The notes below the pieces were generated by a model. The model was not told where the DNA came from, did no database searches, and saw nothing but the letters and a program-made list of their open reading frames with translations. Position numbers and translations under genes: made by a program. This document shows positions 1,545 to 59,349 of a DNA stretch of 64,000 nucleotides, in pieces. Source of the DNA: Deltaproteobacteria bacterium (GTDB lineage: Bacteria; Myxococcota_A; Polyangia; Polyangiales; Houyiibacteriaceae); contig JAXMNT010000008.1 in NCBI GenBank assembly GCA_034670305.1, positions 27,798-91,797 of the forward strand, written 5' to 3'. Position 1 is the stretch's first letter. Every line of letters starts with the position of its first letter.

Positions 1545-1675
1545 CTTCGGGGTCGCGGTCGGGGTCGGCTTGTGGGTCGGGGTCGGATTCGGGGTCGGAT
1601 TCGGGGTCGGATTCGGGGTCGGCTTCCTCGCCCCGAGGGCAAGGGCAAGGGCAAGGGCAAGGGCAAGGGCAAGGC
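1545..1675. repeat. Hexamer/dodecamer microsatellite array: TCGG-core units (GGGGTCGGATTC) followed by (GGCAAG)x6
   Basis: Read directly: ...tcggggtcggattcggggtcggattcggggtcggattcggggtcggcttc... then gggcaagggcaagggcaagggcaagggcaagggcaagg. It lies in the divergent promoter between starts at 1474 (-) and 1724 (+). Confidence 0.95.
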
Positions 1676-1723
1676 AACACCACGGGCACCTGCAGGGGTG
1701 CCTTGTGCGCGGTAGGGTGCGAT

Positions 1724-2812
1724 ATGAAGAACGCCGAGCGACGGGCATTGCGCGATCGATGTCGCTGGCTGAACGGGCACGGTCCGGTGAGTGCCGCCGC
1801 GCATCTACAAGAAGTCGCCGCGTACTGTGAGGCACACGACGTCGCCCTCGACCAGTACGGCGAGGGGGCGTTCCTCGAGGGGTTCGAGTCGCAGGTGGCC
1901 GAACGGCTGGGATTCGATGCCGCGCGCTTCATGCCGAGCGGCACCATGGCGCAGCAGATCGCGCTCCGGATCTACGGCGACCGAGCCGGCAACCCGCACG
2001 TCGGCATGCATCCGACCGCGCACGTCGAGCTGCACGAGGAGCGGGGGTACGCGCACCTGCATGGACTGCGCGCAACGCTCGTGGGTTCCGCTGGCACGCC
2101 GCTGGTCGATTCGGACTTCGAATCGCTGTCCGAACCCTTGGCTGCGCTGCTGGTCGAGCTCCCGATCCGCGAAGCGGGGGGTCAGTTGCCGACCTGGAAG
2201 GAGCTCGCAGCGCTCAAGCGTTCGGTGGGCGCGACCGAAACCCGGCTGCACCTCGACGGAGCGCGCCTCTGGGAGTGTGCGCCGCACTATCAGCGCCCCT
2301 ACGCCGAGATCTGCGCGGGCTTCGATTCTGCGTACGTCTCCTTCTACAAAGGCATCGGCGCGCTGCCCGGCGCGATGCTGCTCGGCAAGCGCGACTTCAT
2401 CGACACCGCGAAGCTCTGGCAACGCCGGAGCGGCGGCAACCTCTACACGTTGACGCCCAACGCCGCGTCTGCCGCGATGCAGTTCGAATCCAGGCTCGGA
2501 CAGATGCCGCGCTACCACGCGCGCGCCGTGGAGGTGGCGACGTTGCTGGACCAGGTCGAAGGCGTGCGGGTGCTTCCCGATCCACCGCACACCAACATGA
2601 TGCACGTCTTCCTCGACACCGACTCGGAGTCGGCACGGACGGCGCGGGACCGATTCGCACAGCAGCGCGGCGTGTGGCTCTGCGGCGGAACGAGCCCCGC
2701 GGACGCCCCAAGCATGTGCCGGGTCGAGCTGTACATCGGCGACGGCGCCCTCACCGTCGAAGACGCAGAGATCACCGACGGCTTCGAGGCGATGCTGACG
2801 CACGGAGTCTGA
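1724..2812 (+). CDS. PLP-dependent threonine aldolase / beta-eliminating lyase family enzyme
   Basis: ATG verified at 1724 inside track ORF 1451..2812. Motifs: MPSGTMAQQIALRIY, LHLDGARLWE, and YVSFYKGIGALPGAMLLG with the candidate PLP lysine. Confidence 0.8.
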   Translation: MKNAERRALRDRCRWLNGHGPVSAAAHLQEVAAYCEAHDVALDQYGEGAFLEGFESQVAERLGFDAARFMPSGTMAQQIALRIYGDRAGNPHVGMHPTAHVELHEERGYAHLHGLRATLVGSAGTPLVDSDFESLSEPLAALLVELPIREAGGQLPTWKELAALKRSVGATETRLHLDGARLWECAPHYQRPYAEICAGFDSAYVSFYKGIGALPGAMLLGKRDFIDTAKLWQRRSGGNLYTLTPNAASAAMQFESRLGQMPRYHARAVEVATLLDQVEGVRVLPDPPHTNMMHVFLDTDSESARTARDRFAQQRGVWLCGGTSPADAPSMCRVELYIGDGALTVEDAEITDGFEAMLTHGV

Positions 2813-2847
2813 GCGAGTCGCCGCCAATCCCGCCACCCCGCGGGACG

Positions 2848-2960
2848 GCTTCGCAGCGACCAGCGGTGCTGGCCTCGGGAATCGCAGCGACCAGCGGTCT
2901 CGGGAATCGCAGTGCTGGCCTCGAGAATCGCAGTGCTGGCTTCAGCAGCATCGCAGCCCT
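2848..2960. repeat. Imperfect 21-31 nt tandem repeat (five TCGCAG-containing units) in a convergent intergenic region
   Basis: TCGCAG recurs at 2851, 2882, 2907, 2928 and 2951, with shared flanks (gggaatcgcag / tgctggcctc). It contains the short hairpin CCAGC-ggt-GCTGG. Confidence 0.7.
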
Positions 2961-2993
2961 CCGCATGCGGATGTAAATCGAGGAAGGTGCGCT

Positions 2994-56605: not shown

Positions 56606-56860
56606 ATGAGTAAGAAACTGTTCGTGGGCGGACTGGCGTGGGCGACAACAGACGAGAGTCTGCGCGAGGCGTTTGAGTCGTTCGGAGAAGTGACCGAAGC
56701 CAAGGTGATCACCGACCGGGAAACCGGTCGTTCGCGAGGGTTCGGGTTCGTGACCTTCACCGACGATGGGGCCGCCCGAGAGGCGATGGATGGGATGGAT
56801 GGAGCCAGCCTGGATGGCCGCTCCATCCGAGTGAACGAGGCCCAGGAACGCCGCCGCTGA
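56606..56860 (+). CDS. RRM-type (RNP-1/RNP-2) RNA-binding protein
   Basis: ATG verified at 56606. RNP-2 LFVGGL, RNP-1 RGFGFVTF. Confidence 0.9.
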
Positions 56861-56905
56861 ACCAACGGGCGCCAACGAACCGGATGCTGAAGAGGCATCG
56901 CACCG

Positions 56906-56940
56906 AGAGAGCCGACCCACCCGGTCGGCTCTCTTGGTTC
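56906..56940 (+). terminator. Hairpin terminator candidate after the RRM gene
   Basis: AGAGAGCCGACc-ccacc-gGTCGGCTCTCT followed by TGGTTCC (weak U-tract). Confidence 0.5.
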
Positions 56941-57127
56941 CGTCCCACGGATGGTCCCAACCATCTTCATTCGTCGAGAAGCGCGTCCGCGGTGTGTTCT
57001 CGCGCAGCCCGGATCGGAGGACTTCGGCAAACGCTTGTTCGAGCGCGGGGTCGGCGACGACCTCCGAGAGTTCTTCGACTCGGACGCGATCCTACGCGCA
57101 GCCCGGCGCGCGTGATAGACACCGGGC

Positions 57128-57826
57128 ATGCCGTGGCGTTGGATGAAGCTGCGCGACGCCAAAGTGCTCGCGCGATGTGACGATGCAGGAGAGTTGCGCG
57201 TGGACAAAGGGCGGGTGGAGATCCGCTACAGCGCCAACGACGGCAAGGCGTACCAAGCCTCCAAGGGCAACCTCAAAGCGTCGGGCGATCCAACCATCTT
57301 CGAGGACGAATTCTGCGCGGCCGCCAAGAAGGTCGGCCCGCCCAAGACGAAGTCGAAGTCGAAGTCGGCCAAAGCGTCTGGGCCCACGCCGAACAAGCCG
57401 AGCGCGGACGAAGTGCTCGTGTACTGCGACGGAGCGTGCAGCGGCAACCCAGGCCCCGCCGGCCTCGGCGTCGTGATGCTCTGGGACGACCACCGCAAAG
57501 AACTCAGTGAGTTCCTCGGACACGGCACGAACAACATCGCAGAACTCACCGCGATTCTCCGCGCCGTCGAAGGCGCCCCGCCGGGTCGCCGGATCGAGCT
57601 CTACACGGACTCCACGTACTCGATCGGCGTGCTCACCAAAGGGTGGAAGGCCAAGGCGAACAAGACGCTCATCACGGACATCAGGAACGCGTTGAAGGTC
57701 CACGGCAAGGTCGCGCTCCACCATGTGAAGGGACACGCGGGCGTGGAGTTGAACGAAGTGGCCGATGGGCTCGCCGTCGCGGCGGTCGAAGCGCGGGCCA
57801 CCGCAGGCTGGAACGAAGTCGCATGA
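57128..57826 (+). CDS. rnhA: Ribonuclease HI with a roughly 95-aa N-terminal extension
   Basis: VLVYCDGACSGNPGPAGLGVV...TNNIAELTAILRAV...LYTDSTY...VKGHAGVELNEVADGLA carries the DEDD residues. Confidence 0.85.
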   Translation: MPWRWMKLRDAKVLARCDDAGELRVDKGRVEIRYSANDGKAYQASKGNLKASGDPTIFEDEFCAAAKKVGPPKTKSKSKSAKASGPTPNKPSADEVLVYCDGACSGNPGPAGLGVVMLWDDHRKELSEFLGHGTNNIAELTAILRAVEGAPPGRRIELYTDSTYSIGVLTKGWKAKANKTLITDIRNALKVHGKVALHHVKGHAGVELNEVADGLAVAAVEARATAGWNEVA

Positions 57827-59349
57827 GTGGCGCGAGTGGCAGTTCGAGCAGCGGCACGTCGATGCCCCGGTGGTTGCTGGTCCTGATCGGGGTCGGTGCG
57901 CACGTCGGGGTGCTCTACGCCCTTCGGAACGTGCTCACGCCGGTGTTCTTCGCGTTTCTGATCGCCTACATGCTCGACCCGGTCGTCGACCGGCTCGAGT
58001 CCTGGAAGATCCCGCGCGCAGCGGCGATCGTGCTCCTGCTCGTACTCGTCCTTGGAACCGGCGTGCTCTTCGTGCTGCTCGTCGTGCCCGGCATCGTGCA
58101 CGACATCGCGGACTTCGCGCGGGAGCTCCCAGGCAAGGCACGGGCGATGCTCGAGTCGTGGACGCCGGTGCTTCAAAGCTACGACATCCCGATTCCGCAC
58201 AGCTTGGACGAGGTGCTGGAAGAGTTCTCTGGCGATGCGCAGGGCATGGCCCGACAGGCGATGGCCCCAGCCGCTGCCGCGATGCGCTGGCTCGTCGGCG
58301 GCACTGCGAACTTCCTCGGCGCGGTCGCAGGACTGCTCATGGTTCCGGTGTTCGCGTTCTACCTGCTCTACGACTTCGACCGGATGATCGCCGCGATCGG
58401 TCGTCTCGTGCCCTTCCGCTACCGGACGCATGTCTCCGAGATCTTTTCGGAGATCGACGAGGTGCTCGGACAGTGGGTGCGCGGTCAGATCCTCGTGATG
58501 CTCACCCTCGCCGCGCTCTACGCGACCGGCTACTCGATCGCCGGGATTCGCCTCGCCATCCCCATCGGACTCGCGGGCGGGCTGCTGGCGTTCATTCCGT
58601 ACGTCGGCGGCGCAGTGGCCCTCGGCCTCGCGCTCTTGATGTGCGCGTTCGACTACCAGGGCCCGACCCAGGTCGGCATGGTGGTGGGCGTCTACGCGGT
58701 GGTGCAGGCGCTCGACGGTCTGGTCATCACGCCGAAGATCGTCGGCGACAAAGTCGGTCTGAGCGCGATCTGGGTCCTGTTCGCGTTGATGGTCGCTGGC
58801 GACATCTTCGGGTTCATGGGCGTGCTGTTGGCCGTTCCCGCAGCGGCGGTGGTTAAGATCTTCGTGGTGCGCGGGGTGAAGGCGTACCGGGAGAGCGAGT
58901 TCTTCGGGCGGGAGGGCGACGAGCCGGTGGGCGCGCTGGACCTGCCGCTCGAGCCGAGGTTGGAAGAAGGGGACGAGGGTGAGGGTGAGGGTGAGGGTGA
59001 GGGTGAGGGTGAGGCCGATTCCGACGCCGAAGCCGATTCCGACGCCGAAGCCGATTCCGACGCCGAAGCCGATTCCGAAGCCGACGCCGACGCCGAAGCC
59101 GACGCCGACGCCGACGCCGATTCCGAAGCCGACGCCGAAGCCGAAGCCGAAGCCGACGCCGACGCCGAAGCCGATTCCGAAGCCGACGCCGATTCCGAAG
59201 CCGACGCCGAAGCCGAAGCCGAAGCCGACGCCGACGCCGAAGCCGATTCCGAAGCCGACGCCGATTCCGAAGCCGACGCCGACGCCGACGCCGAAGCCGA
59301 TCCCGAAGCCGACGCCGACGCCGAAGCCGATCCCGAGTCCGACCGCTAG
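57823..59349 (+). CDS. AI-2E family transporter (PerM/UPF0118) with a 124-aa acidic repeat tail
   Basis: ATG 57823 overlaps the rnhA stop (ATGA). [19 protein letters not shown]..., [25 protein letters not shown]. The ORF runs through the repeat to TAG 59347-59349. Confidence 0.85.
58975..59343. repeat. (GAGGGT)x6 followed by a CCGA-core hexamer array (GCCGAT/TCCGAC/GCCGAA/GCCGAC)
   Basis: In-frame translation is [12 protein letters not shown], then (E/D-A/S/P)n. Confidence 0.95.

Follow-up and report, generated by a model that had tools for sequence, protein, structure and literature searches.

Long microsatellites are, as a rule, almost absent from bacterial genomes. What, then, are the ten long arrays of 6-nucleotide (nt) units that lie in a 64,000-nt stretch of contig JAXMNT010000008.1 (positions 27,798 to 91,797 of the forward strand, assembly GCA_034670305.1), hereafter the window, and why do they occupy both the spacers between genes and the interior of proteins? 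An original prediction had described these arrays, here called A1 to A10, as a dispersed family with a TCGG/CCGA core and had not recognised them as a described class of repeat. We propose, with a probability of roughly 0.6, that they are long hexanucleotide simple sequence repeats (SSRs) or variable-number tandem repeats (VNTRs), that is, microsatellites, of an uncultured Polyangia-like myxobacterium, which grew locally and were kept where they were tolerated. This is a known kind of repeat; its density, and its occurrence in both coding and non-coding DNA, are unusual for bacteria.

Tandem Repeats Finder (TRF), run on the window, returned period-6 arrays at all ten predicted sites, each with 6.5 to about 52 copies and 68-100% matches, and also at 13446-13478. 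Our own periodicity scan assigned 2.06 kb of the window to period 6, was positive otherwise only at the multiple 12, found nothing in the window at periods 3, 4, 5, 7, 8 and 9, and gave zero period-6 signal in 20 Markov shuffles of it. The pattern (CCGANN)x5+CCGA matched 193 times in the window and not once in 100 dinucleotide-preserving shuffles. Total array DNA comes to about 2.1-2.6 kb, or 3.3-4% of the window, the upper figure being the sum of coordinates (~2.6 kb, 4%) that had been predicted. It was also correctly claimed that the arrays are dispersed, non-random and present in both orientations, as none arose in shuffles and CCGA lies on either strand. The window has a guanine-cytosine (GC) content of 65-70% throughout, and no transfer RNA genes or Rfam families were found anywhere in it at gathering thresholds; around A4 and A5 the Rfam search gave sub-threshold low-complexity matches only. 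Its proteins are bacterial, with best matches of 55-72% identity to Myxococcota metagenome-assembled genomes (MAGs) labelled Polyangiales, Sandaracinaceae, Haliangiales, Kofleriaceae and Nannocystales.

Independent sequence was available from Logan short-read contigs found by exact-protein look-up (runs SRR21822715, 717, 723 and 735). Four of them (L120, L121, L122 and L196) were 100% identical to the window by BLAST where compared, and two more (L197 and L198) were positioned on it via the coordinates of exactly matching genes. The right end of L197 falls at about 1606, within A1; L196 (5851..7578) runs from inside A2b to inside A3, L198 (~40753..50763) from inside A7 to inside A8, and L122 (50914..54989) from inside A8 to inside A9, while the starts of L120 and L121, at 59301 and 59303, both fall within A10. 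Each recovered contig of the organism (1.7-18.6 kb) starts or ends inside a hexamer array, stopping 40-110 nt in. Since the contigs are identical to the window and end inside arrays, the edges of seven arrays (A1, A2, A3, A7, A8, A9 and A10) are real; interiors and exact lengths come from the window's own assembly alone. L197 also carries, at 1218-2827, a MerR / MerT-HMA (CopZ-type) metal-resistance gene pair of the same organism, which lies about 1-2 kb upstream of the left edge of the window.

The arrays share a unit grammar. About 70% of array DNA reads N-CCGA-N on what we call the CCGA strand, and for this part the predicted core stands; the remainder consists of AGGGCA/GGGCAA, GAGGGT, CTGNNG (=NNCAGC) and TCCGCT units, to which it does not apply. 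The claim that one frame always reads (D/E)(A/S/P/G) was likewise right for the CCGA-type units and wrong for the others. Coding and non-coding arrays vary chiefly at the same unit positions, 1, 3 and 6, the entropy at positions 1-6 being 1.00, 0.12, 0.64, 0.17, 0.09 and 1.61 bits in non-coding arrays and 0.88, 0, 0.30, 0, 0 and 1.60 bits in coding ones. At the core positions 2, 4 and 5, variant types (counted as independent types) make up none of 12 in coding arrays and eight of 30 in non-coding arrays, a confinement that is expected because constraint should be relaxed in the latter. Periods of 12, 18, 24, 30 and 72 nt match better than 6 nt in TRF (for A10, 89% at 72 nt vs 81% at 6 nt; for A2a, 87% at 30 nt vs 81%; for A7, 90% at 12 nt vs 80%), and growth therefore included duplication of blocks of 2-12 units. 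Unit mix and zonation are particular to each array, and together with these higher-order periods and the unrelated flanks they mark each array as a separate local expansion. No conserved flank or end motif was found among the array flanks oriented on the CCGA strand, and thus the arrays grew in place rather than being inserted as copies of a mobile element. Across the ten arrays no orientation rule was found relative to transcription, replication or window position.

Two further features of the units were observed. A second unit family, GGGCAA/AGGGCA, occurs at four spacers (1636-1674, 13276-13299, 13446-13478 and ~35868-35880) and at two of these adjoins a CCGA-type array; its longer blocks are G-quadruplex motifs (1637-1669), and the short arrays in 13276..13478 share this unit family with the 1636-1674 part of A1. 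In the compound arrays A2 (5793-5958) and A5 (10501-10657) a block of (CTGTTG/CTGTCG/CTGCCG/CTGAGT)n precedes, on the CCGA strand, one of (NCCGAN)n; this common order points either to shared descent or to the same bias in expansion. Derivation of the arrays from the most frequent hexamers was considered and rejected: none of those hexamers forms an array, and the units of the arrays take ranks from 58th down to 500th or lower.

Uninterrupted head-to-tail units of 6 nt place the arrays among the SSRs, whose units measure 1-6 nt (to ~11 nt in prokaryote surveys). Hexanucleotide SSRs have been described, and (CCGANN)n>=8 occurs in at least 119 stretches from many GC-rich phyla, so that the arrays do belong to a described class, contrary to the original prediction. 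Clustered regularly interspaced short palindromic repeats (CRISPR) consist of direct repeats of 24-48 nt with unique spacers of similar length, usually accompanied by cas genes; the units here are 6 nt long, contiguous and without spacers. Repetitive extragenic palindromic sequences or bacterial interspersed mosaic elements (REP/BIME), miniature inverted-repeat transposable elements (MITEs) and mobile cassettes were also rejected, since terminal repeats and a conserved flank or end are lacking and seven of the eight strands folded do no better than shuffles. The earlier exclusion of CRISPR, insertion sequences and MITEs was thus sound, resting on the same want of spacers, conserved flanks and terminal repeats. 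The short tandemly repeated repetitive (STRR) sequences, tandem heptanucleotides in the intergenic DNA of heterocystous cyanobacteria, do not fit a 6-nt unit, a Myxococcota host and three coding arrays. Phase variation needs a change in repeat number that shifts the reading frame or the -10/-35 promoter spacing. A unit of two codons always keeps the frame in A7, A9 and A10; the prediction that copy-number slippage never shifts frame is therefore correct, and its suggestion of contingency loci is not supported, as a frame cannot be switched by a 6-nt unit; for A1, in the divergent spacer, an effect on promoter spacing may apply.

Roles in non-B DNA, RNA structure or protein binding had been proposed as well. 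Both strands of four arrays were folded, and the CCGA strand folded worse than shuffles (z up to +5.7); the one strand to fold better was the plus strand of A2 (z = -8), via G-U pairing. RNA or DNA structure was accordingly rejected as a general property of the arrays. With a criterion of at least four runs of three or more G and loops of 1-7 nt, a G-quadruplex motif was found in three blocks only, 1637-1669 (AGGGCA), 5568-5589 (TCGGGG) and 58969-59009 (GAGGGT), most array DNA being without runs of three G. Orientation is inconsistent too, and no evidence for these proposals was found.

Seven of the ten arrays are non-coding: convergent spacers hold A2, A3, A4 and A8, tandem (co-directional) spacers A5 and A6, and a divergent spacer A1 (Table 1). 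About two thirds of array DNA is non-coding, and by a rough gene map the share of arrays is 23.5% in the intergenic DNA (7.1 kb) vs 1.5% in coding DNA. The three contexts that had been predicted, namely between divergent genes (A1), 0-49 nt past stop codons (six arrays) and in frame within coding sequences (three arrays), are all confirmed. Spacers with an array rank among the longest of their class, and with the arrays removed some 27-250 nt are left. The distances to stop codons hold; closeness to stops is largely expected, because a spacer without its array measures only about 27-250 nt. A long array was found in four of 14 convergent spacers vs three of 43 others (Fisher p = 0.054).

The three coding arrays, A7, A9 and A10, lie in frame inside real coding sequences. 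A7 forms the linker from the FecR domain (Pfam) to a conserved C-terminal helical domain of a FecR-family protein (40111..41517, minus strand); both flanks score best in one and the same frame, and the homologues P0241-P0243 keep both domains with a very different linker length at the A7 site. A9 falls in the interval between signal peptide and plug domain of a TonB-dependent receptor (52768..55293, minus strand; Pfam Plug and beta-barrel). Beside it, at 55145-55203, a 15-nt repeat, CCGACGCCCGCATCT (x3.9, 97% matches), encodes (AGVGD)x4 in the receptor's N-terminal extension. A10 supplies an AI-2E family transporter (57823..59349, plus strand) with its C-terminal tail and ends 6 nt before the stop; in syntenic relatives the orthologous tails are low-complexity (T/S/A)(D/E) repeats of other units and lengths. 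Across genera the orthologous AI-2E tail and FecR linker vary in length and unit, and for the coding arrays the predicted role as hypervariable linkers is supported by homologues of both families that differ greatly in length and composition at the same sites. Of the six possible frames, the coding arrays are read in only two, which lie on opposite strands: NCC-GAN, giving (A/S/P)(D/E), and TCG-GNN, giving S(A/D/E/G). Array codons are GCC, GAA and GAT; the genome prefers GCG (53%), GAG (63%) and GAC (80%).

Table 1. Hexanucleotide arrays in order along the window, with the strand that carries CCGA, their units, TRF matches and gene context (positions are those of the window).
Array	Position	CCGA strand	Units	TRF	Context
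A1	1545..1675	-	compound: minus-strand (NCCGAN)x11, then (AGGGCA)x6.5	1547-1622, 1636-1674	250-nt divergent spacer, genes 950..1474(-) / 1725..2812(+)
A2	5556..5957	-	compound, non-coding: A2a 5559-5792, 39/39 units NCCGAN on minus strand, 30-nt period; A2b 5793-5958, (GACAGC/AACAGA/CTCAGC)n, 18-nt period	5559-5792 (39 copies), 5801-5958	fills convergent spacer, beta-lactamase-family gene (4422..5555 +) / DUF1761 gene (6045..6458 -); 0 nt after TAG
A3	7485..7707	-	(GCCGAT GCCGAA)n, 12-nt period; degenerate end 7485-7550	7485-7706, 37.7 copies	convergent spacer; 29 nt past stop of LysR-family gene (6568..7455 +)
A4	9726..9902	+	29/29 units NCCGAN: GCCGAA x20, GCCGAG x7, CCCGAA x2	29.5 copies	convergent spacer, 9164..9676(+) / PF05635 four-helix-bundle gene (9930..10253 -); 49 nt from stop
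A5	10490..10737	+	compound: (CTGNNG/GCTGCC)x26 10501-10657, then short TCCGAA/AATCCGA block 10676-10737	10501-10657, 10676-10712	co-directional; upstream of PF05635 gene; 10 nt from stop of hydrolase gene (10748..11437 or 11719, -)
A6	35891..36127	-	GCCGAT x23, GCTGAA x6, GCCGAA x4, others	35891-36117, 37.8 copies	327-nt co-directional spacer; 30 nt past stop of 36158..36625(-), 60 nt upstream of start of 35282..35830(-)
A7	40544..40787	+	read on minus strand as TCG GNN, (SA/SD)n, ~80 residues	~40 copies	linker of FecR-family protein
A8	50711..50972	+	compound: GCGGAA block, GCCGAA block, mixed TCCGAA/GCCGAT units	50720-50972, 42.2 copies	fills 289-nt convergent spacer, 4,5-DOPA-dioxygenase (LigB) gene (49816..50709 +) / 50999..51976(-); 1 nt after TGA
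A9	54895..55140	-	read on minus strand, (AE/AD)n then (SA/SE)n	54892-55137, ~42 copies	TonB-dependent receptor
A10	58975..59343	+	read on plus strand: (GAGGGT)x6.7 as (EG)n, then 54/54 NCCGAN as (AD/AE/SD/SE)n; 72-nt higher-order period	58975-59014 with 59014-59342, ~55 copies	tail of AI-2E family transporter
Short GGGCAA-type arrays	13276-13299 (reverse complement), 13446-13478			13446-13478	convergent spacer, 12764..13174(+) / 13503..15728(-)

Could the non-coding arrays hide genes of their own in their acidic frames? This was rejected, as A2a and A8 have no start codon and the others enter antisense or out-of-frame sequence of real genes. In A2 the acidic frame has no start codon upstream and the remaining frames encode GV/GF or PK/PT. 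The minus-strand gene beside A1 begins MSFLDV..., downstream of the array, and the same start was called in L197. Past the TGA of the DOPA-dioxygenase gene the sequence continues in frame (window 50707-51036) as RKRK(AE)n for 109 codons; this is probably a coincidence, and read-through of the stop codon would append an acidic tail.

The PF05635 (23S ribosomal RNA intervening-sequence / four-helix-bundle) gene is bracketed by A4 and A5. Its 237-nt upstream leader (window 9930-10490, minus strand) folds better than shuffles (z = -3.3) and holds four small hairpins capped by CUUCGG, the hexamer that the adjoining arrays repeat on that strand. It may be that the gene was inserted as a cassette into a pre-existing array. 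The flanks of A4 show a 7-mer repeat before the array (9688-9712) and a GC-rich hairpin after it (~9900-9920). The 7-nt repeats CGGTCGT x3.6 (9688-9712) and AATCCGA x5 (10679-10712), which abut A4 and A5 respectively, are the only short-unit repeats of a period other than 6 that adjoin arrays.

Similar arrays were found in other genomes. A scan for eight CCGANN units, with one genome per species, gave the at least 119 stretches mentioned above, in Burkholderiales, Actinomycetota, Planctomycetota, Chloroflexota and others; by record titles, about 32 among the matches listed came from Myxococcota or 'delta proteobacterium' MAGs. Coding and intergenic calls in these genomes refer to hand-checked cases only, since classifiers based on GC at third codon positions (GC3) or codon scores were unreliable beside low-complexity flanks. 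In the Kofleriaceae MAG JAGPCY01, non-coding NCCGAN-type arrays with GAG-ending units lie at L079 1251-1399 and 2103-2374, L109 6006-6149 and L112 3307-3449; two of them flank a yrdC-like gene and the others fill convergent spacers, some 10-20 nt from stop codons. The habit of filling spacers is therefore not unique to the organism of the window. The arrays of the Planctomycetota and Caulobacteraceae loci are intragenic. In a limited literature search, no description of such arrays in myxobacteria was found.

How might such arrays arise and persist? Under the SSR reading they would expand and contract by replication slippage, by unequal sister-strand exchange or by both, in blocks of 1-12 units, and loops of six nt would evade mismatch repair, which is presumed efficient for loops of 1-3 nt only. 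They would survive only where additional DNA does no harm. One such place would be the short spacers, especially convergent ones, in which there is no promoter to disrupt; another would be disordered protein segments, such as a tail, an inter-domain linker or an extension behind a signal peptide, where the frame is kept and only benign frames would be tolerated. The outcome would be loci hypervariable in length, with proteins gaining variable acidic or Ser-Ala spacers, and in intergenic spacers the arrays would probably be functionless padding.

Several observations weigh against this explanation. Three unit families serve ten unrelated loci, where random seeding would predict a much wider vocabulary; the genome's commonest hexamers are other ones (GCCGAA ranks 114th), the array codons GCC, GAA and GAT are not those the genome prefers, and short proto-arrays are nearly absent outside the arrays (four observed vs ~1 expected). 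Non-coding arrays vary at the same positions 1, 3 and 6 as coding ones, though they are untranslatable in that frame. Slippage and tolerance alone leave the restriction to N-CCGA-N unaccounted for. Furthermore, 532 kb of related metagenome contigs around orthologues of the neighbouring ATPase hold 173 nt of period-6 arrays, 0.03% vs 3.3% in the window, a comparison biased downwards by the under-sampling of arrays in short-read assembly; two of the three arrays in those 532 kb lie at the orthologous transporter tail. From this scarcity it follows that the propensity is lineage-specific and needs a cause of its own. Finally, all short-read contigs stop inside arrays, and copy-number variation, the defining behaviour of SSRs, is here something that we infer. 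The narrow vocabulary at ten loci, the shared block order of A2 and A5, the likeness of coding and non-coding variation and the rarity of proto-arrays are the grounds for a different, though unlikely, proposal, in which a sequence-specific process of the lineage rather than generic slippage (candidates being repeat addition from a template, expansion that depends on the motif and frequent gene conversion between arrays) would make spacer arrays and protein linkers one shared pool. If so, new acidic tails and linkers would be drawn from a reservoir of spacer microsatellites, or the other way round.

Three other explanations, one at the level of DNA or RNA, one at the level of protein and one technical, are ranked below the SSR reading. 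It could be argued that the arrays are functional cis-elements of spacers, acting as insulators or terminators, Rho-loading sites or stabilisers of messenger RNA 3' ends in the manner of REP/BIME or STRR. Six of the seven non-coding arrays do lie 0-49 nt from a stop codon, four fill convergent spacers, and the placement recurs in the Kofleriaceae MAG (L079, L109 and L112); for a genome of 68% GC, RNA from the CCGA strand has unusually little structure (z = +5.6), and a CC dinucleotide every 6 nt would suit Rho binding. Nevertheless, orientation relative to the upstream gene is inconsistent, neither strand folds better than shuffles except the plus strand of A2, no Rfam family matched at gathering thresholds, and the same arrays are found within proteins and in a divergent promoter region as well. 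For convergent spacers the enrichment is borderline (p = 0.054) and is predicted equally by a model of permissive sites, and we regard a cis-acting function as quite improbable.

It was also considered, as an unlikely origin, that arrays begin as (A/S/P)(D/E) or S(A/D) linkers and tails under selection in proteins, the non-coding ones being truncated tails or copies made by gene conversion. Variation at positions 1, 3 and 6 of N-C-C-G-A-N keeps a small and an acidic residue paired, and coding arrays have almost the same profile as non-coding ones; the additional low-copy core variants of the latter are as in decaying copies, and A2 and A8 begin 0-1 nt past a stop, A8 reading AEAE in the frame of the upstream gene. 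Yet the 120 best homologues of that gene measure 252-350 amino acids, with no acidic tail evident by length, in-frame read-through would be benign for two of six arrays where one in three is expected by chance, and about two thirds of array DNA is non-coding. A7 follows the same DNA grammar though it is read on the other strand, and the array codons are again not the preferred ones. Lost C-terminal tails were rejected as a general origin, read-through being benign in two of six cases only and the DOPA-dioxygenase homologues being tail-less by length. That long-read or assembler errors made or inflated the arrays is very improbable: array interiors do lie outside all independent contigs, the short-read contigs stopping 40-110 nt in, but short-read assemblies of four runs reproduce the edges of seven arrays at 100% identity, the variant patterns are ordered at higher-order periods rather than noisy, frame is kept in the three coding arrays, which join conserved domains, and comparable arrays are present in many other assemblies.

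As SSRs, the arrays give a free-living myxobacterium a eukaryote-like repeat load, and thus a natural system in which to ask how repeat expansion arises and is tolerated in a compact genome. One DNA motif that serves both as spacer filler and as linker in envelope and signalling proteins offers a test case for the creation and tuning of disordered segments by microsatellites in bacteria. Since the arrays break every short-read contig recovered, short-read MAGs of such lineages are expected to be fragmented at these sites and the arrays under-reported.

Among known systems, the closest in kind are the long SSRs or VNTRs of prokaryotes surveyed by Mrazek and co-workers (PMC4060949), which have the same short head-to-tail units without spacers. 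No suppression of SSRs with 4-11-nt units is seen in prokaryotes, possibly as mismatch repair handles loops of 1-3 nt best, and repeats of 6-11 nt show extreme over-representation in the intergenic but not the coding DNA of Methanococcus voltae, M. aeolicus and Natrialba magadii (PMC4060949). The arrays described here differ from these in their myxobacterial host, their great length (25-55 units) and the single grammar, N-CCGA-N, that runs through coding and non-coding DNA. The density of short tandem repeats (STRs) has been put at a mean of 1.51 bp per kb over all organisms and at ~20-23 in the richest eukaryotic phyla (PMC12699852); the ~33-40 bp per kb of the window exceeds these means, in a rough comparison as STRs are defined differently there.

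The closest named analogue is the cyanobacterial STRR, which also forms dispersed, mostly intergenic tandem arrays of short units in large-genome multicellular bacteria and for which roles in transcript stability or translational coupling were proposed (PMC2670836). Its units are of 7 bp and capable of hairpins, whereas the 6-bp units here show no excess folding and also occur in frame inside proteins, as a 7-bp unit could not. Like contingency loci, which are slippage-prone repeats in or upstream of genes for surface proteins, some arrays lie in such genes, here a TonB-dependent receptor and an anti-sigma-type FecR protein; unlike them, they never shift the frame, most lie at gene 3' ends, and a graded linker length would be expected rather than an on/off switch. 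With REP/BIME and MITEs they share dispersal in spacers, often at gene 3' ends and in both orientations, but those elements are 20-300 nt long, palindromic or bounded by terminal inverted repeats and copied whole, and here there is no palindrome, terminal inverted repeat or conserved flank or end. The (A/S)(D/E), SA/SD and EG repeats of A7, A9 and A10 resemble low-complexity acidic or Ser/Ala dipeptide linkers, and homologues vary at the same places; what sets them apart is that the same DNA repeat, written in non-preferred codons, accounts for about a quarter of the non-coding DNA nearby as well.

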